Shown here in pieces: positions 4,828 through 32,792 of a DNA stretch of 64,000 bases (position 1 is the stretch's first letter; every line of letters starts with the position of its first letter). The stretch is from the NCBI GenBank assembly GCA_008632985.1, contig QPGO01000085.1, positions 62,001 to 126,000 of the forward strand, read 5' to 3'. The translations under genes were made by a program, and so were the position numbers. This DNA is from Psammoneis japonica. Its lineage: Eukaryota. The notes under the pieces are model-generated. The model did no database searches. It saw only the letters and a program-made list of their open reading frames with translations, and was not told the origin of the DNA.

Positions 4828-7800
4828 TTAGGCATCATCTTGATCTGAAATAGAAAAATCGAGCTTTTCAATATCAATGCCCACTGCTTGAAGCTTTCTT
4901 TGGAAACCAGAAGGAGTGTTGAGAGTGTGAACATAGCACGTGTTTTCCTCTTGTCCGCAGCTGCTCTTTTCGCTTATGACATAGGTGATGAGACCTTGCG
5001 TTTTGGATTTTTTCATCACAATAATGTCATCTCGACGGTCTGGTAACAAAGCTTCTGCTAAGCAAACATGGTTTGTACTCCAGCCCTCGTCAAGAATTCT
5101 ACTGGCGGCAATTTCGAAGCTGAATGATTGCGACACGTGTAGCGACCCGTGCAGTTCACAATAGGCTTCCAAGGATAGTAGCGATACAATTTTAACAGCT
5201 CTCCTCCTGTGGTTTCTTCTACATCTCCTTTGCTGCCTCCGACAGTTGCTATTGCTGCGTCGCCCGCTTCGGAGTTCTCCGACCTTGTACCGCCCCATCG
5301 TCATGTAAGCTCGAAAAGGCGCCGTGGCCAACACTTAAGAAGGCTTAATCGAGGATGATTCAATGGACGTACATAGAGCAAACGCATCGTCACCAATAAC
5401 TTCGACGGACGAAGGAATCTCAACCGATTTGAGAGATAGGCATTCCTTGAAGGCGCCTTTGCCAATACTCTTGACAGAGGAAGGAATCCTAATGGATTCG
5501 AGCGACGTGCACTGATAAAAGGTGTATTCACAAATGCTTTCAACGGATGAAGATATCTCAATCGATATGAGAGATGTGCAATGACGAAAGGCAAATTCGC
5601 CAATTCTTTCAACAGAAGAGGGAATCTCCAACGATTTAAGTAATTTGCAATCACCAAAGGCGCCCACGCCAATAACCGTAACAGAGCAAGGAATCTTCAA
5701 TGATTCGAGGGATCCGCAGTGATCAAAGGCGTAGTCGCCAATAATTTCGACAGATGCAGGGATATCTATCGACCTTAGTGATTTGCATCCACTGAAAGCA
5801 CCGTGCCCAATGTCTTTGACGGATGAAGGAGCATAATCGATTCAAGGGCTTCACAGTGAGCAAAGGAATTGTTACCAAGAACTTTGACTGAAGGAGGAAT
5901 CTCAATTGATTCGAGTGATTTGCATCCATGAAAGGCTCCATGAATGCTCGTGACAGAGGAAGGGATAATAAATTCAATCGACCTGAGTGATTTGCATCCA
6001 TAAAAGACACCATTGCCAACACTTCCGAGGGAGGAAGGAATCTTAATCGATTTGAGACATGTGCATTCACCAAAGGCGCATTCCCCGATGCTTCTGACGG
6101 AAGGAGGAATCTCAATCGACTTGAGGGATGTGCATTGAGCAAAAGCATCGTCACCAATAACTTCAACGGATGAACCATTCTCGATGGATTTGAGTGATTT
6201 GCATCCTCTGAAGGCGCCACTGCCAACACGCTTGACGGAGGAAGGAATTTCAATCGATTTGAGGGCGGCACAATAAGCAAAAGCATGGTCACCAATGGCT
6301 TTGACGGATGAAGCAATCTCAACCGAATTGAGTGATTTGCATCCGGTGAAGGCGCCACTACCGACTGTTGTGACGGAGGGAGGAATCTTAATCGTTTTCA
6401 GGGATGGGCATTGAGCAAAGGTATCATCACCAATAGATTCGACGGATGGATGAATCATAATCTTTTTGAGTGCCTCACATTTACTAAATGCGCCGTTGCC
6501 GACACTCTTGACGGAGGAAGGAAGCTCAATCGATACGAGAGAAGCACACTGAGAAAAGGCGTTTTCACCAACACTCGTAACGGATGAAGGAATCACAATC
6601 GACTTCAATGAATTGCATTCTTGAAAGGCACAACCGCCGATTCTATCGACAGAAGAAGGAACCTTTATCGATTCGAGAGATGAGCAAAATTCAAAGGCAT
6701 TATCGCCGATAGCTTTGACGGATGCAGAAATATCAATCACTTTGAGAGCTTTGCACTTGCTAAAGGCTCCTTGGCCAAGACTCTTGACAGAGTAAGGAAC
6801 CTTGATCGATTCGAGTGATACGCATTGAGCAAAGGTATACGCGTCAACAACTTCGACAACGGGAGGATCTGGGCGGATTGGAGTGAAAAGCATTTACCGA
6901 AAGCGCCCACTCCAATGCTCTTGACGGAGGATGGAATCTTGAATAATCTGAGGCGATGGCATCCCCAAAAACTTTCTACACCAATGGTTTCAACAGAAGA
7001 AGGAATCTCGACTGATTCGAGGGAAACGCAATTAATAAAGGCGGAATTGCCGATGCTCTTGACGGACGAAGGAATCCCAAAGTAAATTGATTTAAGGGAT
7101 TTGCATTCTGCAAATGCAGAACAACCAATACTTTCAACGGATGAAGGAATGGTAATCGATGACAGCAATGTGCAACAACTAAAGGCGTCTTTTCCAATGC
7201 TTGTGACGGAGGTCGGCATATGAACTGATTCGAGGCATGTGCACCAAGAAAAGGCGCCTTCACCAATGCTTGTGACGGAGAAAGGAATTTGAATAGATTT
7301 CAGGGATTTGCAATAAGCAAAAGTACAATCCCCAATAACTTTGACGCGTGAAGGCATCTGAATCGATCCGAGTGATCTGCATCCACGAAACGCGCCATTG
7401 CCAACACTCTTGACCGAGGAAGGAATCTTGATCGCTCCAGAGATTCACACAGAGAGAACGTATGATCGCCAATAATTTCCACTGAGGATGGAATCTCGAT
7501 CGATTTGAGGGAAAAGCAACGACAAAAGGTGCAATTGCCAATGCTCCAGACAGAGGAGGGAATCTTTATCGATTCCAAGGAAAAGCAATTTTCGAAGGCA
7601 TGGTCGTCAATGACCTGGACAGACGAAGGAACCCCAATCGATTTGAGTGCTTTGCATTCCCAAAAGACTCCTTTACCAATGCTGGTGATGGATGAAGGAC
7701 TCCCAAAATCAACTTGGTCGAGGGATTCGCATGCGGCAAAGGCAGACCAACCGATACTGTTGATGCATGAAGGAATATCAATTGCCTTGAGCGATTTGCA

Positions 7801-7992
7801 AGCATAAAAGGCGCGTTTCCCAATGCTTGTGATGGAGGAAGGAAGCTGTATCGACTCGAGGGATTCGCATTCTTCAAAGGCTCCATCACCAATGGTCTTG
7901 ACCGAGGAAACAACAATCACTCTCGTCACGTCCTTGGGAACCGCTTGATTGCCTCCTTTGTAAATGAACGCATCATCACGAGGTAAACTCAT
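4828..7992 (-). CDS. BspA/TpLRR-like leucine-rich repeat (LRR_5) protein, roughly 35 repeats of 23 aa, split by several frameshifts
   Basis: Consecutive ORFs 7300..7992, 6737..7357, 5775..6893 and 5335..5700 all consist of IPSSVxSIGxxAFxxCxSLxSI repeats. The N-cap FIYKGGNQAVPKDVTRVIV is typical of diatom LRR_5 proteins. The 3' end is uncertain. Confidence 0.85.
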
Positions 7993-8449
7993 ATTGTTGC
8001 TTTTTCATCAAAAAATCTATGTCTTTGGAAGTGGTTCGGTGCTGCGTTTATGTTGTCGTTCGCTTATTATGCGCCTTCATGGCTGTCACGTATGGTATGT
8101 AGTCAGTCGTGCACGGGCAAAACGCGATCTCCCTCGGACATCGTTTCAAAAAATCCATGCTGGATCCTTTCAGATGCCCGTTACAGCGTGTCGCTTGTCA
8201 CTTTGCATGCATTGTCAATGTTCACTTTGGGGTCGACCATCGAGCATCGAGTCGTCGTCGAGATAGTCGTCGAGATAGTATGATAGTCGAAGCATGCTGC
8301 AGTATGAGAATGATGAAACTAAGACCTTGCTACTCCGCATGCGGACAGACGCAAGGTCATTTTTTGACGTACGCCACAACCGGTCCATCCGCCCACCCGT
8401 CTCGTCTCGCCCTTTCTCACAAAAACACATGGATTGCGGCAGTGTCGCA

Positions 8450-9900
8450 ATGGCAATGGGCTGTCGCTCCGTGCGTCTTTTGGATGTGGATTCGAGCCCA
8501 CAAATACATCCAGAGTGACAGGAGTTGCGGTTGGTCAAGGTTGTGCCACACAGCCAAGGGGAGAGCAAAAAAAACAACACCCGCTCTTCTCACAAAATGC
8601 TCTGGTTGGTGTGCCGCCCTTTGTGAGCTGGTTGTCATTGTCGAAGGGGGGGGGGAGAAAGATTGAATCAATTGGGCATTTTCATGCTCCTCCCTTCCCT
8701 GCCCTCATGTCTGACAGAAGGGGACATCCACCTGCCCCCATGATGTGCTTGGGCTTCAAAAAGGTGCCGCTCTGCCATTGAGTGCTTGAATTTGAGCACC
8801 CCCACAGTGACAAGGGGCCACAGCTCAGGAACTCAGGTGCGTTTGTGATTTAAGAAAGTGGTGGCAAGCTGTGGCTGGTTGGGGAGAGCAAAAAGGCCAG
8901 CCTCTGTCTCTGATTTTGCTTGGGGAACGTCTCGCCTCTCCAGTGGCCTGAGCACCCCGCTCCACCAAACCCTTTGCAAGATTTGCAATTTGCACCCTTC
9001 ATGCAGACATCAAGCAAAAGCAGAACTTGTCTTGCTCCTTTCAGCATTGATCAGACTTGCCACAAAAAAAGCAAAGATGCAAGCAGTGCACAGTGAAAAA
9101 GGCAGAGAAAGTGTGGGTGTGGCATTGATGTCATCAACCAGTGCATCAAGGAGGAGCAAGTGGGCAGGAACACACAAAGTGGTGACCCACAAAACACATG
9201 AGATGAAAAAGCATTGCTCTGTCATTGGAGCCACTTTTGCACACCAGACCAAGGGGTCAGCAAACAAAACACTTGCTGGGTCACTCTCACGCAAGCAAAG
9301 TGGTGGAGGTGTTCAGGGTCTGTGTGCAGGTTGCCAGTGCCTTTGTGAGAGTTGTCAATGGGGGTGGGAGTTGTGATTTTGCACACCCACTTGGTGGCCA
9401 TGTGGGAGTGCCGAGACTTGCTCTGCACCCTGAAGAGCGGGAATTTGTCAAATTGGTTGTTGAACCTGCAATGTGCAGCAATGCTGTGGGCACCACACAA
9501 TGTCAACAGCCTGCTCTGGCCTGGGTCACCCCATGGGGGCAAGCCTGAGTTTCTCCTCAGAGATCCCTCGCCCCAGCATGTGCAATGTTTTGGAAAAAGA
9601 CACACCCGCCTGCGGGGGTCGGGTGTGGAGTGCAGCACCCACCCTCCCCACCCAGGCACAACTTGTCTGCATCTGCTGAGTGCAACAATCCATGAGACTC
9701 TCAGCAGCACCCAGCTGTTGTGGTTTTGAATGCTCTCTCAGAGGCTTGCTGGCTCCTGGACTTCAAAAAAGTCTTTGTGAGCCACGGCAGCAAGAGCCCT
9801 TGCAAGGCCACACATGCGGCTGAGCAGGAGTCGTGTGCCTCAAGAATGAAGAGCCAAAAAGCAACAAATTTCAACTCCTCAGTCTCAACCTTGGCCCCAC
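8450..9900. repeat. CpG/TpA-depleted, TpG/CpA-rich decayed repeat block 1
   Basis: Near absence of TA and scarcity of CG by inspection, with only spurious Cys/His/Gln/Trp-rich ORFs. Boundaries are approximate. Confidence 0.7.
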
Positions 9901-10121
9901 TCTCTCCGATCACCTACCTCACCACCTGCTAAACAAACAACTCCACACGGTTGCGTTGCCATCGCTCGCCCACTTGCCGGCACTTGCTCACTTCCCGACC
10001 CCCGCCGTCTGTCCGCACTGCCGCCCCCCCTTCGTCTCTTCCGCCCACTCTGCCGGTGCCGACCATGGGCCCTCGCCTCAGCCTTACCCCTTCGCGAAAT
10101 CCGACTTGTTGACCACGACGA

Positions 10122-10580
10122 ATGTTTCTATTTCCATCGATTCTATTGACAGGCATGCTGGTTCTAATGATTGGGCGAAAGCCCGAAAACCTCAACATGA
10201 TTGCCACAAGTCTTGCCAATGAAGACTTTCACATGATTGTGTGGAGCGGCATGGATGAAGATTACGACGCGTTGCGTGCCGTTTGTCAACCACAAAAGCC
10301 CGACATTGTATGTGTCGGAGATGGCATGTCACCCGATCTTCGCAGTCGAATCCTTGAAAAGCTATCAAACGAGTATGAAGACTTCAATTTGCCCGAGTTG
10401 CCCAAATACGCGTATCTGAGAAATGTTGGGCCAGACGAAAAGCCAGAGGTAATTGGCAAAATCATGGCTAGTGGGGACGAAGCGAAAATCCAAGAGTTAA
10501 AGGACAAGAAGCTTGGACCGTATGGGACGCCACAATTTGTGATTGATTCGGTCAAGGCCTTTCAGAGCGGTGAGAAATAA
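10122..10580 (+). CDS. Small hypothetical protein (about 140-150 aa)
   Basis: Clean ORF with normal composition and globular alpha/beta-like sequence (LVLMIGRKP..PDIVCVGDGM). No family recognised, and the start may be the Met at 10155. Confidence 0.55.
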   Translation: MFLFPSILLTGMLVLMIGRKPENLNMIATSLANEDFHMIVWSGMDEDYDALRAVCQPQKPDIVCVGDGMSPDLRSRILEKLSNEYEDFNLPELPKYAYLRNVGPDEKPEVIGKIMASGDEAKIQELKDKKLGPYGTPQFVIDSVKAFQSGEK

Positions 10581-10919
10581 AATATCCTAGCAGCTACTGT
10601 ACATTCAGACGATCCACGGAGATTCCGCAGAAAAATGAGAACAAGCTTTCTACTAGAGAAGTGGAAGAACGAAGTAAGACTAATTCCAGAAAGCTGTTAA
10701 GGACACATCAGCTAGTTGTGCAGCTCTCTAATAGAGGGGTCAAGAAGCACAAATACTGTAGTGGCTTGGAACTTTTCCATGGAACCGAGGATACAGAGAG
10801 TAGGTACAATAGCGCTTGTTGCAACGTTGATGGACCAACAAACTCTGGAGTGTGAAGTAGCCTCTAGTAGAAGTTTCTAATGTTGTGTCGCCTACTCAAA
10901 CCAAACCTTCACGTCCTCC

Positions 10920-13265
10920 TCATGCCGCCTTCTCTTTGTCCTCACGTTCGTCCCTGTACTTCTGCATCAGCTCCTCCTGAACATTAGGAGTGACAGCCTG
11001 ATGCTTCAAATATTCCATCGTAAACTCACCCTTGCCTTGCGTTTGACTTCGCAACTCGGTCGAGTAACCAAACATATTGGCGAGGGGGACTTCTGACAAG
11101 ATGTGAACGCCACTACCGTCCTCACTCACGTCGGACGATTGAATAAGTCCCATGCGCCGATTCAACCCGGCAACAACGGTTCCTTGGAATTCACTTGGAA
11201 CGTCGACCTCAACGCTCATGACTGGTTCCAGCACTGAAGGATTGGCTTGCTTCATGGTATCTCGGATAGCGTTTGCCATGCAAATGCGGAAAGCCATGTC
11301 GGAAGAATCCACAGCGTGACTTGCTCCGTCTTCCAGTACAACACGAACACCCTCGACCTCACAACCAACCATACCGCCCTCGGTGACCGCATCATCCATT
11401 CCCTTCGCACAACTTGGGTAGTACTCGGGAGGGATGTTCGTTCCAATACAACGGTTCTCGAAAATGTTTGACTGCCCGCTTTCGGCCATTTCGTTCTCAT
11501 CCAGAGGCTCAATGTAGCCCATAACACGAGCGTATTGACCTGCACCACCCGTTTGCTTCTTGTGAATCCAGTCAAAGGTTTGCTTGGAATTGATAGTTTC
11601 CTTATAGTTGACGTTTGGTTGACCAACCGAGCATTCGACTTGATACTCTCGATTCATTCGTTCAATGTACACCTCCAAATGCAACTCTCCCATTCCACTG
11701 AGAATGGTTTCTTGCGTATCTTCATCGACTCTAACCCGAAGCGTAGGATCTTCTTTGGTAAACTTGGTCAAAGCTTTGCTAAAGTTTTGCTGCATGGTTG
11801 TCTTTTGTGGTTTGACAGCCAAACTCATGACGGGATCCGGAACAAACATGGTACTCATGGCCAAATTCATATTGCCATCCGAGAAGGTATCCATGGACTT
11901 GCATCGACACCAAACATGGCCACGACTTCACCAGCACCAGCTTCGGTAATGTCCTCCATGTCATCCGAGTGCATGCGCACGATCCGTGCCAATTTGATCT
12001 TCTTTCCAGCATCGTTCACGTTGGCAATCATGTTGCCCTTCTTCAGCATACCCTGGTAGATGCGCATGTACGTCAATTGACCAAAAGGAGTTTCTTCCAA
12101 CTTGAATGCTAACGCTAGTAGCGGATCGTCCCGTTTACACGTGACTGGCACCTTGGCTTCATTGTTGGATCGATCAAGGGCAAAATTCTCCTTTTCGTGC
12201 GGTTCCGGCAGATAGTCAACCACACCATCCAAGAGGGGTTGGACACCCTTGTTTTTGAATGCGGATCCCATAAAGACGGGTACAAACTTACAGGCAATCG
12301 TTTGTCGTCGAATGCTTCCTTCAAGGTTTCCGTGTCGGGCGTTTCTTCCATGATGAACAACTCCGCAATCTCATCATCCACGTCTGCCAATCGTTCAATC
12401 AATTCCAATCTCGTTTGTTCCACAACATCCACCATGTCTGCCGGAACCTCTTGTTCAACAACCTTTTCTCCATTGTCACCCTCAAAAATATACGCCTTGT
12501 TTTCAATCACATCAACAACACCGACATGTTTGTCTTCCAGTCCAATTGGCACTTGGACGGGTGCCGCATTCAAACCAAGCTGAGACTGCAATTCCGAAAT
12601 CACTTTTGCAGGATTCGACCCCTGACGGTCCAACTTGTTGACAAAGGCCAATCGTGGAACGTGGTAGCGTTTCATTTGACGATCGACCGTGAGCGATTGA
12701 GATTGAACACCCGAGACTCCGCACAAGACCAAAATGCCACCGTCCAACACCCGAAGAGCTCGTTCTACCTCGATGGTGAAATCTACGTGACCGGGGTGTC
12801 GATAATGTTAATGTGAGCATCGTTCCACTAAGAATTTCGAAACAACAAGAGTTACAGAAACAGTGTAAGTCACACTACTTATTCTCGGCATTCACGTAAA
12901 AAGTGGGACTGAAACAGAAGAACAGACATACCTTACAAAACGTCGCGGCAGATTGAATGGTAATTCCTTTTCTCGTTCCAAATCCATGGAATCCATTTGG
13001 CTCCAACACCATCTTTTCCTCGAACATCATGAATGGAATGGATACGTCCCGTGTAAAACAAAATTCGTTCCGTAAGCGTCGTTTTCCCCGAATCAATGTG
13101 AGCGGATATTCCAATGTTGCGCAATTTGTGTTGTTCGTCGGAAGAAAACCATTGACGAGTAGAACCAAAGGACGAGAGCACTTGAGAGTTCTTCGTGAAT
13201 AGTGTCTTGGAGGGAATGAGCGAATTCCTGCCAAGGGCGCATCGTCTCAGCAGCGTAGCCGCCAT
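10920..13265 (-). CDS. GFM1: Mitochondrial translation elongation factor G1 (intron 12828..12931, several single-base frameshifts)
   Basis: Transit peptide, [111 protein letters not shown]. Confidence 0.95.
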
Positions 13266-13828
13266 GGTCCCTTACCTTTTCAAAGAAAAATGACGCGTCG
13301 GAGGGAGTTTCTTACGTGGTCGGAGGATTTTGTGTGGATCCTGGCGGCGAGAAAGATCCAAAGCAAAGATTCCATTAGAGCATTGAATTTATTCATGTTA
13401 TATTTCGATAAGGAATCTTGGGTCAGCTTAACTTGAATCAATCTCAGGCACTCGTGCTACCCACAACCGATATTTTCCGATCGGCCAGCTTTGGCTACCG
13501 GTAGACCTAAAGCATCTACTCTCTAGCTAGAGAGGACTATCTTCTACAATAGAACAGAATCATAATAAATTTAAGTACTAACTCCTATGATCCACGTTAT
13601 AAGGGATTTCAAGGGTAGATTAACTTTCAAAACTGATGTCTGGCAACATGCAGCTCATCTAGTTCCCATTCCATAGGTAGATGATTCCTTTCTCTGGCTA
13701 TCCTCCCGCACCAAAAATCATTCACCGCACCATGTACTATTTGCCTCTCTTCAACTTTTCGACAGAGTTGTTGATGACGTATGGACAACTTATCATGCCT
13801 TACGAATCGTAGAACTTTTTCTTCAACT

Positions 13829-14674
13829 CTAACGTTGCTGCGAACCATAGTTTGGAGTACTGGCATTATTGTTTGGGTTATTCTCCACCACTACTCGACT
13901 GGACGGACCACCGCATTCTTCAATGTCACTTGCAAAGAGTGCCGCCGCACAGGCATTGGTGAGGGGGAAGACAATTGGTCCAATCATGGGCGTCGCCTCG
14001 AGAAAGGCACACATGAAACCAAACTGCGCGTATTCACTCGATTGATCATATGTCGACGGACTCCACAATGCCCTGCATTCGGATTTGTCTTCTCCAAAGA
14101 CTTCTATTCTTTGTAATTTGGCAGGAAGTGAAATGGCATCAAAATATCGATCCATCATGTCCCACCCAATAAATGTTGCATTGATGGATGCGTACAGAGC
14201 CGTGCCGACAAACGGAACGATATTGAGAGGATATGTCAAGACTCGTACAAAGAATGCCTTTCGAAGTATACTCAAATCCTTGCAAATGGATTGCTTGTGC
14301 ATTTCTCCCTCTTTCCATGTTCCTCGGATACGCATGGTTTCCACAAAAACTTCGGTTTGGCATCGCGATTGAGCCACCACGGTCAAGAGCGCTGCACAAA
14401 CGGCCGCTTCCAACAGCACAGCCAAAACAGCCAACAGCCAACTCCACCACTGTCCACCACCAAACAACTCTGCTTGCGGTTTGAGCGCAAGTGCAAATAG
14501 CAAAATCATGCAAGCAAAGGCAACCATCATTCCGACGCATGCCACCTTGAACACCTTGGTCCAGAGTTGTGAATGTTTCAGTACAAATTGAACGCCCTTG
14601 AGGGGATAATGTGAAGGGTTATGGCCATAGCGATGGCGTGAAAGAGAGACAACAGCAGAAAGCTTGGGTTTCAT
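13829..14674 (-). CDS. EI24/DUF540 (CysZ-like) multi-pass membrane protein
   Basis: YPLKGVQFVLKHSQLW N-terminal motif, several TM helices, LNIVPFVG and FLEATPMIGP motifs. The start codon is uncertain (14674 or 14746). Confidence 0.7.
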   Translation of the reverse strand: MKPKLSAVVSLSRHRYGHNPSHYPLKGVQFVLKHSQLWTKVFKVACVGMMVAFACMILLFALALKPQAELFGGGQWWSWLLAVLAVLLEAAVCAALLTVVAQSRCQTEVFVETMRIRGTWKEGEMHKQSICKDLSILRKAFFVRVLTYPLNIVPFVGTALYASINATFIGWDMMDRYFDAISLPAKLQRIEVFGEDKSECRALWSPSTYDQSSEYAQFGFMCAFLEATPMIGPIVFPLTNACAAALFASDIEECGGPSSRVVVENNPNNNASTPNYGSQQR

Positions 14675-15079
14675 GTTGTAATGTTGGAATAACTGTGCAG
14701 TAGGAGACGAATGAAAGCGATGACATGCTTCGTCGCGTGCCGTCATTTTTTGACGTTGGCAGCAGATCGGCAAGATATATTCGACATTCTTCAGCAACAA
14801 AGATACAGTAAATATACAGCACAAGTTGATCCTCACCATTGCTGGCGCAAAAGCAAGAATGAGGAGCAATGAGGCCGTCATTGTACACTCTGCTAGAGCA
14901 CACTGTAGATTCCATTCAATGCAAATCACAAATTGTGCCATTACAAATGCAGTGCAATCCAACTAACAAGAGCAAGAAGACGAGATGTGCCACACACAAG
15001 GCATTGATGGACACTCTCAGAAAAAAAGAGTCGCTGCCCTTGGCATGACAAGCAAGCACCACACAGACTGACAAGTGCC

Positions 15080-15570
15080 TTGAGATGTCAATCAAAGGGC
15101 TTGCTGCGGGAAGCAGAAATGGCACGTTGGAGCTCGTTGCACAAGTGTGGGACTGTCATTGGTGCATTGCCTGGATTCAAAACCTTCATCTCGTCGACAC
15201 AGGAGGGTCGTCACCCTTTTCTTTGGGGTCACGCGTCGATCCTCCTTGCAGCTCTCTTGTGCTTCAGATGTGGTTCCAGGACCTCCCACTCCTTCTTGAG
15301 CCCTTCATTGATTTTTGTTGTGTCCTCAAAACCTCAAGGTGCAACAGAATTTGATGATGCACTTCAACTCAATTTGTCAAACAATCTTTGGCTTTTGAAA
15401 GCCACATTGCTCACTGAAAACTTGATGAGTTTGTTGTTTTTGGCACAGCCCCTGATGCAATTCCATGTTGAAGATGCAAAGAGCAGTTCTGTGTCACTCT
15501 CATGCAACATGTGGTGCTTGCTCTCATCTCTCATCACCTGGCCTGATCTTGGCAAGGAAGCAAGAAGCAC
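15080..15570 (-). pseudogene. Hypermutated paralog of the gene at 20315..21668
   Basis: Aligns by eye to 20520..21045, e.g. 15489 ctgtgtcactctcatgcaacatgtggt vs 20974 ctgtatcattctcatacagcacgtggt. Confidence 0.85.
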
Positions 15571-15809
15571 AATCTGCAGCAGCTGCCCGCCAGAAACCCC
15601 TGCATGTGTGTTTCTGCGAACACGCTCTCCTTTTGCCCAGCTTGCCCTTGGATTCTTCATTCTTGGCAATTGTCAGAGTGGCTCTCTGGACAGCCCCATC
15701 TCAGTTTCTGTTTGCACCATTTTCTTTCCCAAGATCAGTGCATTTGTTGGACTTGCTCAGCAGCTGTTCACCAGACGAACAATGGGCATCTTTGTGTGTC
15801 AAATGCATC

Positions 15810-16915
15810 CTGATGTGCACTGGTGTGGTCTCTGGTGGGCCCCAGGGGACACTCCAAAACTGTTTCTGAACATTGCAAAGTTGATGTTGTGGGCTTGTAA
15901 CTCCTTGTCACTTTTCCCCCAATGGGAGGCAGCAGTCTTGAGTGCCCAAACTCCAGAGTGAGAGGATCCCATGATGATGCCAACCCAACAACTGCCAGCA
16001 GCATGGGATGCTGGCAGGCAGTGTGTGGTGAACCCCAGGCAACACTTAAGAGCTGTGGCCAGCTGGGCATTGCAAGGTTGATCTTGTGGTGTGTGGCCCC
16101 ATGTCACCTTTTCTCTGACAGGAGGCAGCAGCCTTGAGTTTCCCAACTCCACGGCAAGGACTCCATTGTGTGGCACTTGCTGACCTGACACAGCCAGCTG
16201 CAAGCTGAGGGCACTGGTGGTGTCTGGTGGGCCCTGGATGTAACTTCAAGAACTGTGGTTGAGCATTGAAAGGTTTGTCTTTTGGCGTTGTGTGGCCCCA
16301 TGTCACCTTGTTCCCAACAGGAGCAGACTTGAGCTTCTTGGCTCCAGAGCAAAAGGGGATCCCATGATGGCACCAATCAACCTGACAAACTGCCAGCAGA
16401 GGGCATTGGCGGTCTTCAGACGAGGACCTCAGGCAAGACTTCAAGAGCTGTTGGTGGGCATTGCAAGGTTGATCTTGAAGTGTTGTGGCCCCATGCACCA
16501 TGTTTTGCCCAACAGCAGCAGACTTGAACCTCCAAACTCCAGAGCAAAATGACCCCATGACAGTGCCAACCAACCCAACAACAGCAAACTGAGGACCCTT
16601 GCAGTGTCTGGTGCTCCCCACCAGGTGACACTTTGTGCTGGGCATTGCAGTTGACCTTGTGGCATTGTGGCCCCATGCAACCTTGTTCCCCACAGCAGCA
16701 GACTTGAAGCCAGGGTGAAACGAACCCATGACAGTGCCAACCAACCTGACAACTGCCGGCAGAGGGCATTGGTGGTTTTCAGCAGAGAACCTCAGATGAG
16801 ACCACAAGAACTGTTGTTGGGAATTGCAAGGTTGGTCTTGAAGTGTTGTGGCCCCATGTCACCTTGTTCTCCCAACAGCAGCAAACTTGAGTTTCTGAAC
16901 TCCACTGGAGTTGCT
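15810..16915. repeat. Degenerate tandem array, about 6 units of 180-196 bp
   Basis: The motif ggcattgcaaggttgatcttg..tgtggccccatg recurs at about 15870, 16067, 16262, 16457, 16641 and 16821. Confidence 0.85.
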
Positions 16916-18314
16916 GATTCAAAGGTTTGATGGCCTGAGTGGCAGTGGGTGAGTGAAGCTGCACAAAGCAATGCACTTGGAATGCCAGAAATGCAAATTT
17001 GTTTTGCAGTGGCAAATGGCTTGAGGAAGAGAATGGCAAAATTTGGAGGGCATTTTTTCAACAAGTTTCTCTTCATTGAAAGCAATGAAGAACTGCAATG
17101 AGTGCTCAAGCTGCCCTCTGTTTTGTCCTGATGTTAAGTTCAAGAAAGAGGATCTTGTGGGGGGATCATTTGGGGTGCAAGTCAAAATGTGTGGCTGAGC
17201 TTTGTTGGTTGCAAACCCCACAATTTTGGAGGCTCACAGCCTTGCCAAGCTTTCCTTCCCCAATCTTCATGGCAAATCTTGTTGATGATGCAGTTGTTGC
17301 AATGTGGCATCAATTGTCTGCACTGACCTTTGCACAAAGTCTTCATGTCAAACAAGTTTTCTGTTGCCAAAGCCTTGGTTGCAACTGCCACTCATTCAGT
17401 CTGGGTCCTGGAGTCAGGCGCATGGAGAGCACTCACCCTTCTCTCTGAAAAGCAAATTGATGCCAGCACTGGGACAAGCATGACATCTGAACACCCCTCC
17501 CCCCTCTGTGATCTTCTGTGAGAGACAAAACTGGTGCGCTGTGATCTGGGTTGATGTTGGAATTTGTCAAATTGCAGTGTTGTGATGACAAGGTCAAATT
17601 GGTCAATGAGCATTTGTGGCAACAGGAAGCATGAGTGGTGACAGGGGCCAAAGAACAACAATGTGGTCATTTTCCAGGGCTGCTTGACAAGATGAATCAG
17701 GCTCCAGCGTGGTGCAAATTGACATTGGGTGGAAGGAAATGATTCAAGTTTGCAGCTGTGTTGTCTGTCAAAAGGGGGTGGTTCAATGGGAAGTTTGTTT
17801 TGAGAGAAGAGCTTTTTGTTGTTGTCAATCAGCACTTTGTCCTTGTTGCATGGCACACAAAAATGACAAAATGGTTTTTGATGGGGGTGCACCACCACCA
17901 TGCAAAAAAAGGATGAGTGTCTGAGTTGTGTGGAGCCCAATGCGCAACAAAGAGACAAGTGCAGCAGAAACACCAAAAAATGAGGTGGGCAATTGAGCTG
18001 AAGCTGTTCCAAACAAAAAATTGTTCAACTCTGAACAAGGTGCTGGGCCACAAAACAAAACATGGCAACTCTGCCCATGCTGACAACTGGAAAAATCAAG
18101 TGTCAACCTTGCACGACAATTTTGGCAATGCCAGATTTGAGATTTGTGGCTGAAAATGAGCCAGTGTCAGAACATTGCTTGTTCACTGCAGCTGCAGTTG
18201 CACCCACCTTGGGTGATTTTGAAATGTTGTGCCACCTGTGAAGACAGTGCAGCCACAAGTGCACAATTTTGATTCTTGATGGATCTTCCTGTCAAGAGCA
18301 AAAACATCATGTCA

Positions 18315-19325
18315 CAGACAAATGTGGCAAGGACTCAAGGGGAAAATCCTGGATCCAGTCCAGGGGGTGATTCAAGCCATGCCAGGCACCAGCTTGGCAA
18401 TGGAGAAGGTGTCATGGCATTGCACATTGCAGGATCATCCTCCCATTGAACAAATCACCACATCAAGGGATTTTTCTCATTGCCCCCCTCAACCTCAACC
18501 CCCAGATCAAAATCCAATTGCTCCCCCTTGCTCACAACATTGGCAACTCCCTTGGCTGCTCATGTGACACATGGTGAGCACATCAAGACCAAACTTTGAC
18601 AGCTCTTGGCTGGTCCAGTCTTGCTGGTGGAGGGGCTCCCATCTCAACAAAGTGGTGGGAAAGTGAAAAGAGGCTGAAAAGGCCTCTGAAGGTGCCAGCA
18701 CAAATGCTCGATGAAAGAACCCTTGCACCCATGGGACATGGAGAAGGTTTGGGTTTGCTGCAAATCCAAAGGACAGGATTGGCATCCCAAGAAACAGGCA
18801 GTCATGCTTTGGCATTTTGTCTCCATCTTGAGTTCTTGGGCCCTGTGAGAGAACTTGTTTGCCATCATGCATGTTGCCCAGCACCACACTCAGGCGTGGT
18901 CAACAACCAACACCACTGAGAAAGTGTCCAATGCCAAAAAGGCCAAATGCTGTTGAGAGTCTTGCAATCAGTGGCATTTGGTGGATGCACACAAGTCACA
19001 CCAGGGGGTTGGGTGTCACTCAACCCTGCCGTCTGCAGGGTCTTGCCACACAAATGTGGCAACTGCTCAAAGGGAAAACCCTGGATCTGGTCCAGGGGGT
19101 GATCTGAGCCACACTGGCTTGGCAATGGAAAGGATGCTGCAGCACCGCGCATTGTGGAATTGACCCATTGAACAAATCACCACATGTCCATGGATTCTTC
19201 TCAGTGCACCCTCAATGCCCAGATCAAATCCAGTCATCCCCCCTTGCTTGTGTCACTGGCAACTCCCCCCAGCTGCTCAGATGGTGTGCAAGCATGCTCC
19301 CTTTCATTGAGAGCTCTTGCCAGCA
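18315..19325. repeat. Two diverged direct copies of an approximately 280-bp segment (about 18315-18610 and 19050-19325)
   Basis: Both copies share acaaatgtggcaa..gggaaaa..ctggatc..gtccagggggtgat, cccattgaacaaatcaccacat and cccagatcaaa. Confidence 0.8.
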
Positions 19326-20314
19326 GTGGCTGCATGTGAAGGAAATGAAATGGACTCATTAGAGTGCACGCAACTTTGGAGCAGTGTGACATGGGAGGCC
19401 AACTCTTGAGTCTGCATCCTGCAGGTGTGCCTCAAAAATGGTTTCAGGAGCAGAGAATGTCTGCACTGTGCTGCTTCATTGGGCAAGAGGCCACTTCAAG
19501 CCCACTTCTCCTTCTTGACCAACAGTGGCTGATCCTGTCAATGTCATCAGTGTCAGTCTTTTCTGTGATGGCATGCAAGTCAGCCAAAACCACCACAACA
19601 AATGACCACAGAAAATGTCATTTTGGACTTTCTCAATGTCCACAGGTGAGGAAGCATCCAACTGAAAAACAATGGGTGCAAATCAAAAATTCTGTGCAAA
19701 ACCTGATGAAGCAAAGTGTTGAGGGCAGCAGAGGCAAGATGTCTCCCCCAGCAATCAGAGATGGCCAGCCCACTGACTCTCTCCAGTCTGTCATGGCTTG
19801 CCACCACCTTGTTGAGCCACAGCCACATCTGAGTTCCCAAGCTGGTCTTGTTGACACACAAGAAGAGATGTTGACACTCCCTGTGCTCTCCTTTGACCTT
19901 TCTGAGAAGTGCAAGGATGATGTGATCCTTGTGAAAGTTCAAGTGTGCTGTGTGCTTGGAGACCTGCCAAATCCAACAGAGCTTCCGGCCCACAAAATGA
20001 CAAGATGCAGTTTGCAGCAAAGTGGAGACCAGCCATAAGCCATGCATGAGCCAAAGCCAGAGAGCTTGGAGTGTTTGCCTTGTTTGCCACTCATGATGGC
20101 AGATGACTTGTCAACTCCACCAAGACAGCATGCTCGGGTCACCAATTTTGGCCCATCTGGAAAACATTTACCCCTTCACAGTCGCAACTTTTATTTCCAC
20201 GAGGCAATGGTTTTTGGAATTTAAAAAGGGCCGTAAATAAAAGAAAAAGAAGTGTTGTGTGCCATGTTTGCGTTGCGGCAGATTCCCTGTTTTGGTTTCA
20301 AAGGAGGTGGTAAA

Positions 20315-21668
20315 TCAGGTGCTTGTACCGGGAGGGTCCCACCTGTAGTAGGGATCGTAGGCCCCACTTGGCAGGCCCATACCTGGCATTCCCCCATTTC
20401 CATTTCTACGCCTATAGGAGCCCTTAGGCGTTGTCATCGGTGTGGTTTCAGGTGTGTCAACCGGTGTCGCCAGTCGCATCAAAGCCTCTGATATCTGATC
20501 AACCACAGAAGGCGATTCCCAGACATCAATTACAGGGCTTGCTGCTGGAAGCGGAAGTGGCGTCGGCATGCGTTGCAAGTGCGGTGCCGGTTCATTGCCG
20601 GGATTCAATACCTTCGTCTCATCGACTAACAACTTGGGCAACTTGGTAGGAGGGTTCTCGTCAGCCGCTCCTTCCTTGCCCTTTTCTCCGGCAGGACTCT
20701 TTCTAGCCCTCTTGCGCTTTAGGTGCGGTTGTAGGACCTCCCACTCATTCTTCAGCCTTTCGCTGACTTTCTTTGTGTCCTCCAACTCCTCGAGGACCGA
20801 TAAAGTTTGACGATACGCTTCGCCTCTTTCTTGAGATACCGGATCGTCTTTAACAGTCCAACTCGTCAAACGATCCTCAGCCTTTGAAATCAAATCACTC
20901 ACTGAAAACTTCAGTTTGTTCTTTCTGACATAGTCCCTGATGTCATCGTACGTTGAAGGTGCAAAAAGCAGTCCTGTATCATTCTCATACAGCACGTGGT
21001 GCTTGTTCTTGTCGCCCGGCCTGACCTTGGTAAGGAATCGAGGTAAATCATAGTGTCCCTTCACTTCTTTCAAGAACTTAATAAAACGATAATATATTTC
21101 AGAAGCTTCCAAGTTGCTGAGTTCATCATCATCTGGCTTTCTTTGGGCAAATTCCCGCCACCACGACATTACGTTGTTCTTTTCTTTACGATTTCCGTTT
21201 CCGTTGTATTTAAGAAGAACACAATCGTGTGGAAGCCTGTACATGTAGGGTTGTCTATACACTGGGGGTGGCAGTGGCGCGTCGAAGGCATTCGATGTTG
21301 GAATAACATCTGAGGGAGCGGTGACCTGGTGGGTGCCGTTATTTCTTCGGTGGGTTTTTCTTCCACAGTATTCCATTATTTCCATTGACTCGCAAGCTGT
21401 TATGATTCGAAAAAAGAACAAACGTGTCAGCAGTGATCAATAGTTTAGCAAACACACGAAATTTTAATGACCCATTTGGTACTATTTTCTTACCTTTTCT
21501 GAAGTTTGATCCCCCAAAAGAGACTTGTAGTTTTGTGACTTTGTCTTCGAGCGTTTTCGTTCTCTTCTGCAAATCAGCAATTATTTCGTCCTTTCGCTCA
21601 TTCTCGTTTTTCAGAATGACAATATCTCTTTCAAGGATTTCGATCCTTAACTGATCAACACCCCTCAT
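20315..21668 (-). CDS. Unknown 418-aa protein, two exons (intron 21397..21493), N-terminal coiled coil, Pro-rich tail; probably belongs to a repeat or mobile family
   Basis: Removing a GTAAG..ACAG intron joins ORF 21339..21668 in frame to 20315..21421 (..SNFRK-A-CESMEIM..). A decayed paralog lies 5 kb away. Confidence 0.65.
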
Positions 21669-22380
21669 TCCTTCTGTTCTATTTATTTGAATGTTTCTTA
21701 TAGAGGTAGCGACGTTCTAGTGCAGAGTCCATTGTTTGTGTGTTGGAGGAAATGAAAGTGTCATGATTCCTTGATGGGTGTCACTACCGGTATTGTAATT
21801 ATCTTGGCTCTTTGGTCTTCCGCGCTCTTCCCCGGAAGGCAAAAAAATGATATACTGTATGAGCGGTACAGTTTCTACGTGGATTTGAAGTACGTACATC
21901 AGTGTTGAAGAGTGTATATAAACAGACAGTATGGTTCTGCTGTGCGTATCTTATTGGATTTTATCTTTTAATATCCAATAGATTACACACAATAATTGAT
22001 ACTAAACCAATGCATATGACTTTTTATGTAATACGTGTACAATACAAACATAAATGAAACATACATGTTGACTATAGTGTGATTCAAATTCGGAGTAAAC
22101 AAAACGGAGTATCGGCAGTTTGTATAATATATAATTTTAATGTATGAACCTTTGAGGAAAATTTGTATGATGTGGGTAGGCAGGTACGGTATGTATTGAC
22201 ACCTCTTCCGATGATGTGTTTGTTTAGATAACGGAAATCCTTCAGTCTTTTAAGATATATTACGTCGACAGTGTCGAGACAGAAGATACTGTCTGTGGCA
22301 TGACTTGTCAGAACAGGCAGGGATGAGCTCACTTTTTTTCCCTACTCACAAATCCAGCATGGATTGAGAATCGCGAAACC

Positions 22381-22914
22381 ATGGACTTACGATACCCAGA
22401 CAATCCCGATCCCATCGACAATGATCTCACTAACGCTGATGTCCCACAGGAACGTGGTGGGTTTAGGAACCACCATGTTGGGGGGCAGAGATTCCTTCAG
22501 TTGGTTCGTCAGGAGTTGGACGCATATTTGGCTGCCAACAAGCGGGGTAAAACCGCAATCTCCACTGCTCTTGTTGAGCAAATCCACCGTGAAGGCGGTC
22601 GGTTCGTTCGGAGGAACCGAACCACGGGACTTTGGCACGAGATGCATCCCACTCGAGCCAGGTACAAGACATCTCAAGCTTTTCGAGATATGTTGTGCCG
22701 TGATAGGAGAAACGGACGCAACGCTCCAAGGAGGATCATTCGCCGCGCCACTCCTCCACAAGACGCACCTGACCTTATAGATGAGGGCCCAAACAGGCTG
22801 GAGAATCATGATCCTCCAAACTTGGAGATTGACGTCCTTGCCGACCTGAATTTTGAGTTCAACGACGATCAATCTTGGACGCCCGAAGACATTGAAGCCT
22901 TACTTGAACTCTGA
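22381..22914 (+). CDS. DUF6824-domain protein (diatom-expanded family)
   Basis: ADVPQERGG..NHHVGGQRFLQLV..Y..K.AIS..LV..I...GGRF....W.E....AR.KTSQAFRD consensus, followed by an acidic tail. Confidence 0.8.
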   Translation: MDLRYPDNPDPIDNDLTNADVPQERGGFRNHHVGGQRFLQLVRQELDAYLAANKRGKTAISTALVEQIHREGGRFVRRNRTTGLWHEMHPTRARYKTSQAFRDMLCRDRRNGRNAPRRIIRRATPPQDAPDLIDEGPNRLENHDPPNLEIDVLADLNFEFNDDQSWTPEDIEALLEL

Positions 22915-25597: not shown

Positions 25598-25628
25598 CGC
25601 TTGACGGACTTGGATTTGATTTCATTCA

Positions 25629-26959
25629 GGCACGTTCCCACCCCGATAATTTCGGCCGTAAAATAAATATAATTTCGTTCTACACAAAATTCCTGTAGAA
25701 ACTCTCGTACAAGAAAAATCGCACGTCTGTTTTCCATCCTTCAATTTACATCCGTAATTATCAGCAAATTACGACGACAGGTGTCGGTCGTCGTAAATTC
25801 TCTCCCGTAAATATAATTTTCACGGTAAATTCGGCGTTTTGGGAGCTCGAACGTGCCACGTCACAAGCTCCCCATTTTTCTTTCTCCGCTCCGATCGCAC
25901 AACAACCATGATGGCTGCTGCGATGAACGGACCCGTTCATACACGAACGACCGTCCTGTCTACGAAGGTAAGAATATAGAGATAGGTTAATAATACTACG
26001 CTTGATGCGATCAAGTTGTCAGAATTATGATTTTTCGTTGTTGTTGTGGCTTATGACGACCGTGTCGACTAACAGTATTTTTGATGTCTTTGTTTCTCTT
26101 GTTCAGATTTCGCGTTGGGATTCTTCACAAACCATACGTCTACAGACTTGAGGTCGAATCTTCATAGCAACATATGATCTGATGTTACATTGAGGGGGTT
26201 CTTTGGTGCATGCTCGAGGTTGTTACTTGATGGACTGTCAAGAGTCAAGAATGCAAGAATTTTGGTCACGTCGACGACAACAGCAAGGCTTGTGCTCCGT
26301 TTTGATGGAACATGACTATGAAGAAGGCTGTGTGCACTCATTTCATTAATCTTGTCGTAAGTTTGGACAATGATGCTGGTGGGGGTCAATGTTTTGCACA
26401 CCGTCGTTGGCTCCATTGTCTGCAGCCCTTCTGTTGCTCTTTGAAATGGATTTAGGCCATTGGTAAACCGCAAGAGTTAAGAACAGTGCCTTTTAGCACC
26501 TAACATTCTGTAGAAATTTCATTTAATAGTTTTGCATGCTGTGGTCTTACTGCATGCCAATGTTTCGTGCTTTTTCATGCTCGCTCTGCAACTCTTGCTA
26601 TCAACAGAGGATTGAATGTTGGTGTGTTTCTTCTGTCCTTCACTGGTGTTATCATTAGTCTTGGGTTACCGTAGAGCAATCGCAAAATGGACAACGATTG
26701 TCCCTGACAATGTTATGGTGACTCTCTAGTCCTAATAGCTAGCAGCTCTCTAGAGCTAGCTACTACTAGCAGTAGAGAGTAGTAGTGTAAACAGTGCTGT
26801 AGCGTGGTACTGTAGCGTGTAGCGTCCTCACCGAGCTCGACATGAGATTTTGATCTTTTTTACCGATCGAATCCGTTCCCAGCCTGACGCCCGTAAATAC
26901 GTAAATTTGGCCAAATTATATTTATTTTACGGCCGAAATTATCAGGGTGGGAACGTGCC
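25629..26959. mobile_element. Non-autonomous PIF/Harbinger-like DNA transposon, 1331 bp
   Basis: 47-bp TIRs GGCACGTTCCCACCC(C/T)GATAATTTCGGCCGTAAAATAAATATAATTT at 25629-25675 and 26913-26959 (one mismatch). A 3-bp TCA duplication flanks them at 25626-25628 and 26960-26962. No transposase ORF. Confidence 0.88.
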
Positions 26960-27271
26960 TCAATCTGCTGTGCCCCTCTTTGTCAGGCAGGACGTGCCAT
27001 TGGAGGGAATTTCCGAGGAATTTCGATTTTTGCTGTCGGAGGGAACTTTTTGAAATTGTGGCGCGACTTCAACGTGTCAAAAGATCCTGCGATCGTAGAA
27101 ATCTACGTAGAATTTGGTACTCCTACCAACTACGAAGCACCCGCCGAGTGACAGGAAATGCTGTTGAGCTGACTCTTTGTGTTCGTTTGATCGTTCATTT
27201 TCCCTTGTGGCGGTCCATCAACAAATTAGAGAGAGAGTCACTTTTTTGTTTTCTATTCATAGTTGGAAAAA

Positions 27272-30397: not shown

Positions 30398-32353
30398 CTA
30401 AACCTGCAGCAATGGACTCAGACGGTTGTTGCGCTTGTCGTGTTTCAATGCATTGATAATCTGAGTCACTGGTTTTGCTGCACCATAAACCTGATACACG
30501 CGATCACAAGCTACCTGGGCACTCAATCCAGCTCGGACAAGCCCAGCCACCACGTCCCATAGAACCTTCCTTCTGTGGTACTTGTGCTTGACTCGACCGC
30601 GCTCCTCTCTGGTAAAGTCTCGTGCTGCTTTCCTGCCACCAATTCCATTCTCATACTCTTGCCACAGAATGTGAACAGTCCTTGGATTAGGGCTCAGGGT
30701 GCTCTCATAAGGGACGTGATTTGGATTATTATTGTTGTTTGCACCTTGCTGAGGCGGGACGTTTCCTGCCGCTTGTTGGTTACCCTCTTGGTTTCGTACA
30801 ACTCTAAATGCCGGCTGGGAAGCAAGGCGTCGCATGTTGCGTTCTACATTTGCAAGTCGGCGCTCCAGCTGTGCATGACGATCATCGGAGCTGGCTTTGA
30901 GCTCCTCCACGATGCGACGCAATGACCTCACCTCGGAGTGCATCGCGAGCAATAGATTTCGATCGGCAAGCCCGCGGCCGGCTGCGACGCCCCCATTCTG
31001 AGCGCCATTCCCCCCATCATCAACATCCACCACTTCATTGAAATATACCTCGGCATCTTCACCAGTCACCACCATCAATACTTTTTTAATTGGGTTCTCG
31101 CCAATCGGCAGTTGACGCACTCCATTGTATGCTTGGAGAATGCGCTCTCTCAGATGTTGCGGAAGGTACTCGCTTTCCTCTGAAAAAGCAAACCACAGCA
31201 GTGCTTTCCCAAGCACCAAAGCAATCTCAGAACCAAATTTGTTGTTTATTGCCGGCACTACATGCTCCAATAAAAAATCATTTGAAACTCCAGCGCCCTC
31301 CTTGACAATGTATTTGCACGGGCCTCCAACACAGAGTGCCGAGGCAACCTTGGCATCCGGCCATGGCAACTCTACATCATCATACAAATCCGATATGCGC
31401 TTGGATATTTTCCAACGGCCACGATAGTCCTTCTCGTCTTTTTGGCACCCGTTTTTGCGGGCACGCGTTGAGCCATGTTTTCTGTTGCTGTGCCCTTTGG
31501 TGCTTCCTGTTGCAGCAACAAATTCTGGATGAATGTGTGCTTCGTTTGCGAGTATCTTGGTGACTGCATCCTTCACCTTTTCTCCTCCTTCTGGCACACG
31601 AAGGTCATCGGTTAATCCAAAAATGTAAGGTGTACGTTCTGCGGCACCTCCTGCACCATGGAACACTTCTAGCCAAATTGCCAAGCCAAGCAAAGAACAA
31701 AACTGTGGGTCCATTGCCCCAATGAGAATTTGGTTTGGGGCATCTCTTTCTTCCAGACAGTTCTTTGACCAATTTAGCCTTGCCCGTAGCGTAAAGTCAT
31801 TGGCTGGATGGGGGGTGAAATTCTCATTGAGGAACTGCGTGCAATCGTCGATTCGACCAATCATGTGAACCTGAAACCGGAACAAGCTTGGCATGAGACA
31901 CTTTCGCAGCATGGAATTGGTCTGGTTTTCCTCGAGTATTTTGATTTGAGCCCGGTACTCCTCGTCTTTCAATGGTCGTCTCTTTTTTGACGGCGCACCC
32001 CTGTTCCGAGTTTCCTCTTTCTTGACCTTTTTGATGAGTTCGTTTACGTCGGTTGATCGTGTCGGGTTGCCTTGGTTTGATTGAACATTCCACGGCATCA
32101 ACCGGTTTGGCATGTAGCTGGAAATCGCCTTCTTCCAGTATTCCAACGAACTTGACCTTGCTTGCTTGGGCAAGTCGTCATCGCCTGGTTCGGGCGTTCC
32201 ATGCGCCTTTAGATTCATCCACCGCTTGACATCGTCGGGGGTCATTTGAAGCAGCCTCTGGTTGGTGAACTCTTGTTCACACTGATAAGTCACCCCATCA
32301 AGAAATGACATGAGTGCTATCAAGGTTGGCTTGTAATCATTTTTAGACGGCAT
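30398..32353 (-). mobile_element. Crypton-type (stramenopile CryptonS-like) tyrosine recombinase with C-terminal GCR1_C-like DNA-binding region, intact 651-aa ORF
   Basis: YR catalytic set in order: GRIDD (R), WSKN (K), GHSNRK (HxxR), GRWK (W), DLYDD (Y). N-terminal GNPTRS motif, a coiled coil, and TVHILWQEYENGIGG..RRKVLWD C-terminus. Intronless. Confidence 0.85.
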
Positions 32354-32792
32354 GGTCTTCGTTGTATTGTTGCATAAATCGATCAGAAACGCGACGTACC
32401 ATGCAACAAATCGGTTGTTTCAATACGGAAAAAACTCCCGTGCTTCCTCCAAAAAAACACGGAAGGTACGGTTGCTGAAGAGGGGGTAACGGTCAGTACA
32501 ATGTGTAGAATTCAACGGGGAAATACTACGGAATACAACATGGGTTGTATTCCCGGGATAATGTGAGTGTACGGTATCGTGAAGGCAGGAGCTCGTGGCT
32601 CGTGGGTGATAATAGTGTCACAAACCACAAACCCCAAACAAAAACACAGGTAAATTCGAGCTCGTGGCCAGTACAATCTACGTACAGACAGTACCGCTGC
32701 GGTGATGGGCATGCATAGCAGCGACAAGCGCAAAAAGACAACCATGACGAGCACCGTCGGACGCAACGCGTCTAAGGATAGTGTAGCGTCGG

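Follow-up and report, generated by a model that had tools for sequence, protein, structure and literature searches.

The window analysed here, a 64-kb stretch of contig QPGO01000085.1 in the Psammoneis japonica assembly GCA_008632985.1 (positions 62,001 to 126,000, forward strand; ~48% G+C, with a single N at 51304), carries four bounded intergenic domains, D1 to D4, of 1.4-7.5 kb each and 17.2 kb in total, in which the dinucleotides TA and CG are strongly depleted, as delimited from a 500-bp dinucleotide profile and a list of TA gaps. The original prediction had described this double loss in one decayed gene copy; the footprint extends past that copy to all four domains. A silicon transporter gene lies at 36186-37859 (Pfam Silic_transp, E 2.4e-209), and its closest public relatives are diatom proteins of at most 77% identity. 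On the strength of this gene and its best relatives, the window reads as nuclear diatom DNA from a host that appears to lack close representation in the protein library, in agreement with the diatom origin that had been proposed from the letters. The features on which the argument draws, together with the open reading frames (ORFs) adjoining the domains, are given below; the cluster thresholds mentioned are those of a preprint on Bigelowiella natans (Mettrop et al., 2026; bioRxiv 10.64898/2026.01.13.699255).

8505-9915, no strand: D1, with 3 TA and 20 CG in 8501-9925, between a BspA-type leucine-rich-repeat (LRR) gene and an EF-G gene
13829-14962, minus strand: EI24/CysZ-like ORF (Pfam PF07264, E 2.5e-6, under the curated cut-off), adjoining the left edge of D2
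14964-20036, no strand: D2, 5.07 kb, which holds the decayed copy and fills the gap from the EI24-like ORF to P0001
15088-15559, minus strand: decayed P0001-like gene relic (blastn E 8e-34 against 20526-21037), with five in-frame stops
15804-16904, no strand: diverged internal repeats in D2 (self-BLAST; offsets of ~190 and ~395 bp, 67-71% identity)
20315-21436, minus strand: P0001, an orphan ORF of 373 aa from stop to stop, with an intact frame and normal TA and CG density
42145-42986, minus strand: MORN-repeat gene (MORN Pfam E 1e-34), with a paralog at 57219-57686
42622-43650, minus strand: MORN copy and its 5' flank, the mutated part lying in D3; homologous to 57546-58508
43479-50950, no strand: D3, the largest block, with eight successive 1-kb windows within the preprint's cluster thresholds
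51859-52443: ankyrin-repeat ORF of normal composition, between D3 and D4
52724 to ~56000, no strand: D4, with three successive 1-kb windows within the thresholds and a diffuse right edge
57546-58616, minus strand: unmutated MORN paralog with its 5' flank, against which the D3 edge is read

Pooled over the domains (17,233 bp), 36 TA and 137 CG remain, corresponding to observed/expected (o/e) ratios of 0.03 and 0.13, with TG at 1.82 and CA at 1.83, compared to o/e ratios of 0.55 for TA, 0.99 for CG and 1.20 for both TG and CA in the remaining 46,766 bp of the window. At the outside densities the domains would be expected to hold 664 TA and 941 CG, of which 1433 are missing, and since the surplus of TG and CA (1362) matches this deficit, the missing TA and CG can be accounted for as TG and CA. 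Runs of (TG)n or (CA)n contain merely 186 of the 3936 TG and CA in the domains. The G+C content is 49.4% inside and 47.1% outside, so that the roughly GC-neutral outcome proposed earlier holds for all domains taken together. The longest TA-free run is 2225 bp, which has a probability of about e^-87 given the density of TA outside. In D1, the 1-kb window 9001-10000 has Rho values of 0.04 for TA, 1.76 for TG+CA and 0.24 for CG, and D2, with about 7 TA and 27 CG (counted over 15201-20175) and TA-free gaps of 934, 894, 2225 and 676 bp, has Rho values of 0-0.04, 1.72-1.85 and 0.05-0.23, respectively, in five successive 1-kb windows. Altogether, 17 of the 64 1-kb windows lie within the preprint's cluster thresholds, forming clusters at 15001-20000 (five windows), 43001-51000 (eight) and 53001-56000 (three) plus the lone window 9001-10000; CG Rho in these is 0.03-0.25, and 0.61 in an edge window.

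The decayed copy in D2 can be compared directly with an intact relative. Positions 15080-15570 had been predicted to be a degraded version of 20520-21045, and self-BLAST confirmed this by aligning 15088-15559 with 20526-21037 (534 columns, 65.4% identical, E 8e-34). The two copies were also aligned globally, which gave 475 aligned columns, 365 of them identical, and 102 further gap columns. All six string pairs quoted in the prediction were found in this alignment, and a tblastn search with P0001 matched the relic at 41% identity over 164 aa (E 7e-21). The relic keeps the minus frame of the intact ORF with five in-frame stops, all of which are TGA because the stretch is devoid of TA, and the three aligned Tyr codons have all been lost, to H, W and C. 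None of the 12 TA of the intact copy is kept in the relic, where eight have become CA, three TG and one AA, and its 28 CG have given 11 CA, 9 TG and 3 other dinucleotides, with five kept; for comparison, TG was kept at 27/32 and CA at 19/30 positions. The dual signature that had been read from a few well-aligned stretches, CG to TG/CA and TA to TG/CA in the same DNA, is thus borne out by the fates of all aligned dinucleotides.

Counted per strand-site in this pair, A>G changes were found at 11/25 TpA sites, compared to 5/66 ApA, 8/60 CpA and 3/73 GpA sites. TpA is therefore clearly hotter than the other NpA contexts together (11/25 versus 16/199; Fisher p = 1.5e-5), a comparison that had been named in advance as one on which the proposal could fail. 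C>T changes affected 21/54 CpG sites versus 25/178 elsewhere (p = 1.6e-4), and CpA showed the lowest rate among the four contexts (4/59). The relic and its paralog are further separated by gaps 14-30 bases long and ~75 substitutions off CG/TA sites. P0001 itself belongs to no Pfam family, and neither a word-indexed protein library (near lengths only) nor 1.84 billion representatives contained a homologue; likewise, there was no usable Atlas match and no viral-contig relative.

A second pair of paralogs lies across the left edge of D3. The two MORN copies are 75.7% identical over 1 kb (self-BLAST), and their homology spans the 5' flank and enters D3 by ~200 bp. Before position 43440, TA was kept at 30/38 and CG at 28/33 sites, whereas after it none of five TA was kept (three CA, one TG and one other) and CG was kept at 3/6 sites, the difference in TA retention being significant (p = 0.0013). 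The 5' flank of the paralog at 58400-58616 retains normal TA and CG. The D3 left edge thus crosses the 5' flank of a gene whose paralog is untouched. Since each of the two pairs has a spared member, the targeting looks to be by domain rather than by homology, and not like that of fungal repeat-induced point mutation (RIP).

The domain edges are sharp at the 50-bp scale; the last TA left of D2 is position 14964, adjoining the EI24/CysZ-like ORF, and at the right edge of D4 TA is back from 55750 to 56200 and CG only from 56250. On their left side, D2, D3 and D4 each have a TA-free zone that exceeds the CG-poor zone by 100-350 bp, and the order is reversed at the right edge of D4. As the TA and CG footprints differ at the edges, they point to two processes rather than one. 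The TA loss is also further along, with 36/664 TA surviving versus 137/941 CG. Residual TA is of the form YTAR, with survival relative to outside density of 0.29 for TTAA, 0.25 for CTAA and 0.16 for CTAG, whereas RTAY and other TA with a 3' pyrimidine are almost extinct (inside versus outside: ATAT 0/149, GTAC 0/142, ATAC 1/291, ATAG 0/189). The target can thus be written as T-A-Y, as hardly any TA remains in which the A of one or the other strand precedes a pyrimidine. For residual CG the commonest context was GCGC (0.47), and the rarest were CCGA, ACGG and TCGA (0.06-0.08).

The same sequence is present in a public sequencing run, here called X1, which has 83% of the sampled words from 13500-21500. 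Contigs built from its exact 31-letter words, at a word depth of 49-70, tile 8000-22000 including D1 and D2 and carry the same TA- and CG-poor sequence with 0.1-1% differences. A second run of unrecorded kind (X2) matched 8000-8257, 10060-14498 and 20382-20583 only, with no cover in D1 or D2, and a third (X3) gave no match; no RNA run was listed with this sequence. Of the 91 differences between X1 and the window, 40 are listed, 20 inside D1/D2 and 20 outside, and the following counts are among those listed. Inside, there were nine CG<->TG/CA differences, one TA<->TG, one A>C creating CG and five others; the remaining four letters belong to two double differences at neighbouring bases, both CA<->TG, as would be expected if an ancestral CG or TA had been mutated separately in two alleles. 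Outside, no transition at a CG site and three TA<->TG/CA differences were seen. CG sites are thus polymorphic at 9/51 inside versus 0/365 outside (p = 3e-9), and for this reason CpG decay in the domains is recent or ongoing. Outside the domains, the low TA o/e (0.55), the TG/CA ratio of 1.20 with CG at 0.99, and the three of 20 listed differences that are TA<->TG/CA make a weak genome-wide pressure from TpA to TpG/CpA possible.

Read from stop to stop, the domains contain 94 ORFs of 90 aa or more, the two longest measuring 317 and 302 aa, and this abundance is a consequence of the fact that TA-free DNA can carry only TGA stops. In a Pfam search none of the 94 reached the cut-off, with only Sdh_cyt (E 0.0024) and DUF7255 (E 0.0029) below threshold, and no Pfam family was found in D4 when its three plus frames were translated with X in place of stops. 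The 302-aa ORF at 53081-53986 in D4 had no homologue and no viral-contig relative in our searches, and when 122 ORFs from outside were compared with the domains by tblastn, the only matches were the P0001 relic and its antisense frame. The diverged repeats at 15804-16904 had a summed X1 word depth of 1175-1444, versus ~50 in the flanks, with many contigs alike at 90-95%, indicating that related copies exist elsewhere in the X1 sample; Tandem Repeats Finder detected no tandem array there, and in the domains as a whole only one 29-bp repeat of 1.9 copies. Part of the domain material may thus plausibly derive from repeats or foreign DNA. In X1, D1 (word depth 49.5) and the gene relic have the depth of single-copy sequence. 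With one copy mutated per pair, single-copy DNA among the targets and the D3 edge crossing the 5' flank of a MORN gene, the description of the process as repeat-targeted is not upheld.

Several neighbouring features deserve mention. The BspA-type LRR gene at 5357-8004 (Pfam LRR_5, E 1e-154) has many internal repeats of 63-75% DNA identity and is thus a repeated coding sequence, yet unmutated. The EF-G-like gene at 10923-12807 on the minus strand comprises at least two ORFs, one (10923-11927) with domains III, IV and C and another (12118-12807) with the GTPase domain, a split that implies an intron or a frame change. A DUF6824 ORF at 22327-22911 on the plus strand (E 3.7e-21) adjoins P0001, and 21001-22500 is a locally AT-richer stretch of 38-42% G+C. 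At 25624-26964, a 52-nt inverted repeat, 96% complementary, encloses 1237 bp with normal or high TA and CG, possibly a terminal-inverted-repeat element spared by the mutational process. A 673-aa ORF at 30401-32419 on the minus strand, of normal composition, contains a GCR1_C DNA-binding domain (E 5.8e-7), a domain known from Crypton-type tyrosine-recombinase elements. Finally, the N at 51304 sits at the right edge of D3 between the near-duplicates 50958-51303 and 51351-51689 (96.5% identical), an arrangement that suggests a join in the assembly at which two alleles, or overlapping ends, were both retained.

We regard it as probable that two transition processes, each with its own sequence context, have acted in situ on silent intergenic blocks of this diatom genome within common boundaries. 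The targets would be blocks of degenerate repeats and gene relics, presumably held in silent chromatin. The first process, from CpG to TpG/CpA, would most simply be deamination of 5-methylcytosine (5mC) in silent DNA that is presumably methylated at CG. The second, from TpA to TpG/CpA, amounts to A>G after T on either strand and appears to have gone further than CpG decay and to be most effective with a pyrimidine after the A (TAY). It is likely to be enzymatic, with a nucleic-acid deaminase that would be recruited to silent chromatin and convert adenine in the DNA to hypoxanthine; the data are compatible with such an adenine deaminase. We estimate the excess at 17-fold or more for A>G at TpA and ~6-fold for C>T at CpG, rough figures with TA saturated. 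The end state would be DNA of unchanged G+C without TAA or TAG stops, Tyr codons, or TATA-type and AATAAA-type signals, and the process may serve in defence.

Some observations weigh against this interpretation. The background divergence of the relic pair is high, at ~23% of aligned columns. As P0001 is without a homologue, no outgroup is available for polarisation, and the direction of change therefore rests on coding intactness, the Tyr codons and the domain-wide absence of TA. A chronic bias of ~17-fold at TpA and ~6-fold at CpG over a long time would suffice, making an episodic 1000-fold hypermutation unnecessary. A runs test of low power revealed no strand-coordinated clusters of TG or CA (z = -0.5 inside, -1.7 outside). 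Among the listed differences a single TA<->TG polymorphism falls inside the domains, too little to demonstrate present TpA activity where the TA substrate is nearly exhausted. X1, whose platform is unrecorded, may be the assembly's own sample. Lastly, Pfam scans of the domain ORFs and the plus frames of D4, together with a viral-contig scan of the 302-aa ORF, revealed no recognisable protein domain of a transposable element (TE) or virus.

Among the alternatives, a coupled mechanism survives best, although we consider it improbable. The T:G mismatches left by 5mC deamination would be processed by a non-canonical or long-patch repair of the Pol-eta type that mutates nearby A:T pairs, as the original prediction had suggested as one candidate. 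Such coupling would explain why CG and TA are lost in the same domains, in which CpG sites are currently hot, and repeated correct repair of CpG lesions could yield many error-prone patches per TA. The WA motif of Pol-eta, known from phase 2 of somatic hypermutation, has hotspots at both TA and AA and gives transversions besides transitions at A:T. A loss of AA would thus be expected, yet AA is not depleted in the domains (o/e 1.28 versus 1.19 outside), the ApA sites of the relic pair changed much less often than TpA, and the TA changes comprise 11 transitions and one transversion, all of which disfavour Pol-eta. Moreover, the TA-free zone reaches beyond the CG-poor zone at three left edges, and in the B. 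natans work only 1 of the 231 viral-insert mutations was not A>G or T>C (Mettrop et al., 2026).

It is more doubtful still that no targeting took place, and that the domains represent no more than old neutral DNA which has reached the mutation equilibrium of the genome, with the remainder held back by selection. The o/e ratios of TA and TG/CA outside the domains, together with the three TA<->TG/CA differences among the 20 listed there, agree with such a drift. However, 4.7 kb of DNA outside the domains without any ORF of at least 80 aa keeps TA at an o/e of 0.75 and CG at 0.96, and the untranslated flank of the MORN paralog retains its TA where the D3 counterpart has lost 5/5. Neither the sharpness of the boundaries nor the restriction of listed CG-site polymorphism to the inside would be expected from neutrality.

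Very little speaks for an RNA route, in which retroelement transcripts would be hyperedited at UA by an ADAR- or ADAT-like adenosine-to-inosine (A-to-I) editor and then copied back into DNA. ADARs prefer a G 3' of the target, and the better survival of TAG than of TAT or TAC in the domains is opposite to this preference, whereas a U or T on the 5' side is indeed typical of A-to-I editors, as also noted in the Discussion of the preprint (Mettrop et al., 2026). Editing of transcripts does not account for two strands that are equally struck (CA 1908, TG 2028) without strand runs, nor for a footprint with sharp chromosomal edges that takes in the gene relic and the diverged repeats as well as 5' flanking DNA of a host gene. 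In addition, Pfam detected no reverse transcriptase domain among the 94 domain ORFs or in the plus frames of D4.

An artefact, in which a long-read basecaller took modified bases (5mC, or a modified A or T at TA) for T and G and the errors entered the consensus, is very unlikely. The platforms of the assembly and of X1 are unrecorded, and in nanopore-only assemblies 5mC can be miscalled as T and N6-methyladenine as G. On the other hand, contigs of exact words at ~50 depth, which are not expected from noisy, modification-sensitive reads, reproduce the domains. Substitutions off CG/TA sites, long gaps and five stops further separate the relic from its paralog, and the conversion is strand-balanced and near complete (97% of expected TA). 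We know of no genome with a TA o/e of 0.03, and the idea that the domains are viral or horizontally acquired DNA that was TA- and CG-poor on arrival deserves as little credence as an artefact. It would suit the viral inserts targeted in B. natans (Mettrop et al., 2026) and the lack of domain homologues in the Pfam, protein-library and viral-contig searches, but two alignments with host paralogs place TA and CG in the normal copy opposite TG and CA in the domain, and CG/TG differences segregate between the window and X1.

In-place mutation of silent blocks by two processes would matter in several respects. Mutational genome defence in eukaryotes is known chiefly as C>T change, as in fungal RIP and in the action of AID/APOBEC enzymes. 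A TpA-specific A>G process has so far come from one rhizarian alga, in a preprint only, and a diatom footprint would show its phylogenetic breadth. The footprint supplies the long-term end state, kilobases without any TA, and links the TpA process to domains of CpG decay, and the TAY flank rule is a constraint on candidate enzymes. In practical terms, TA-free DNA yields long false ORFs (94 of at least 90 aa in 17 kb), which gene finders may call as genes. A natural, context-defined DNA adenine deaminase, if real, would also be of interest for base editing. More tentatively, and with our own judgement leaning slightly against it, a chromatin-directed TpA(Y)-specific DNA adenine mutator could be an ancient defence arm of the whole stramenopile-alveolate-rhizarian group, found in diatoms and chlorarachniophytes, operating with CG methylation in the diatom domains and through an uncharacterised natural DNA adenine deaminase. 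If so, silent or invading DNA would be erased in a GC-neutral manner, losing its TAA/TAG stops, Tyr codons and TA-based signals.

Compared to known systems, the domains resemble methylated repeats undergoing 5mC decay in that CG has become TG/CA on both strands of intergenic DNA and CG sites are strongly polymorphic. Classical CpG decay leaves TA alone and lowers G+C, whereas G+C is unchanged here because the conversion of TA to TG/CA compensates. Fungal RIP, which depends on RID/DNMT4-type enzymes, changes C to T mostly at CpA, creates TpA and AT-rich DNA, and strikes all duplicate copies. The domains share with it dense, dinucleotide-context transitions in blocks and the destruction of coding capacity, but they differ in the erasure of TpA, in a G+C content that is no lower inside than outside and in one copy per pair being untouched, and the earlier statement that RIP, which makes the TpA that is removed here, cannot explain the pattern stands. 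The known A-to-I deaminases, comprising TadA/ADAT2-ADAT3, TadA-derived base editors, the editing of fungal sexual-stage mRNA and metazoan ADARs, act on tRNA, mRNA or double-stranded RNA and need engineering to act on DNA; what they have in common with the domains is A>G chemistry at an A directly preceded by T (U).

For diatoms, the text of Hoguin et al. (2023; PMC9998398) describes TEs that are CG-methylated through DNMT5a, as well as a RID-related DNMT4 of unknown function in 31/60 diatoms surveyed. Among PMC open-access papers and bioRxiv we found no report of TpA erasure in diatoms, and 10 metagenome loci around relatives of the silicon transporter (~47 kb, too little for generality) contained no TA-free stretch above 310 bp.

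The closest known system is that of B. natans, a rhizarian chlorarachniophyte. According to the text of the preprint, 231 of 302 new single-nucleotide mutations in mutation-accumulation lines lay in two viral inserts, all but one of these were A>G or T>C, and those were all at TpA, with a rate of about 1e-7 to 1e-6 per site per generation (~6e-7) in some lines only; the reference genome contains 124 TpA-poor, CpA+TpG-rich clusters, and the authors favour an ADAT2/TadA-like DNA adenine deaminase, citing DNA activity of amphioxus and trypanosome ADAT2 (Mettrop et al., 2026). As A>G/T>C hypermutation confined to TpA has thus been described for integrated foreign DNA, the view that the A>G mutator had no precedent can no longer be maintained. 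There are also clear differences. The host studied here is a diatom and belongs to the Stramenopila, the targets have no viral or TE protein domain, unlike the viral inserts, and the process is known from its end-state sequence rather than from de novo events. Depletion is near total, with a TA o/e of 0.03 compared to a Rho of 0.45 in the nucleocytoplasmic large DNA virus region of B. natans, and CG is lost in the same domains, whereas the new mutations reported in the preprint include essentially no C>T. The preprint's text contains no occurrence of 'CpG' and mentions neither diatoms nor stramenopiles, and its supplements may hold CpG or flank data; the TAY>TAR preference is described here, and no flank preference is given in the preprint's abstract, Results or Discussion (Mettrop et al., 2026). 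On the other hand, both systems show TpA to TpG/CpA change on both strands, TpA-poor and CpA+TpG-rich clusters, confinement to particular regions and, as far as the preprint's text describes them, many affected predicted ORFs without annotation. In conclusion, the TpA-specific A>G process of B. natans is probably represented in the domains of this diatom, where it would act alongside methyl-CpG decay.

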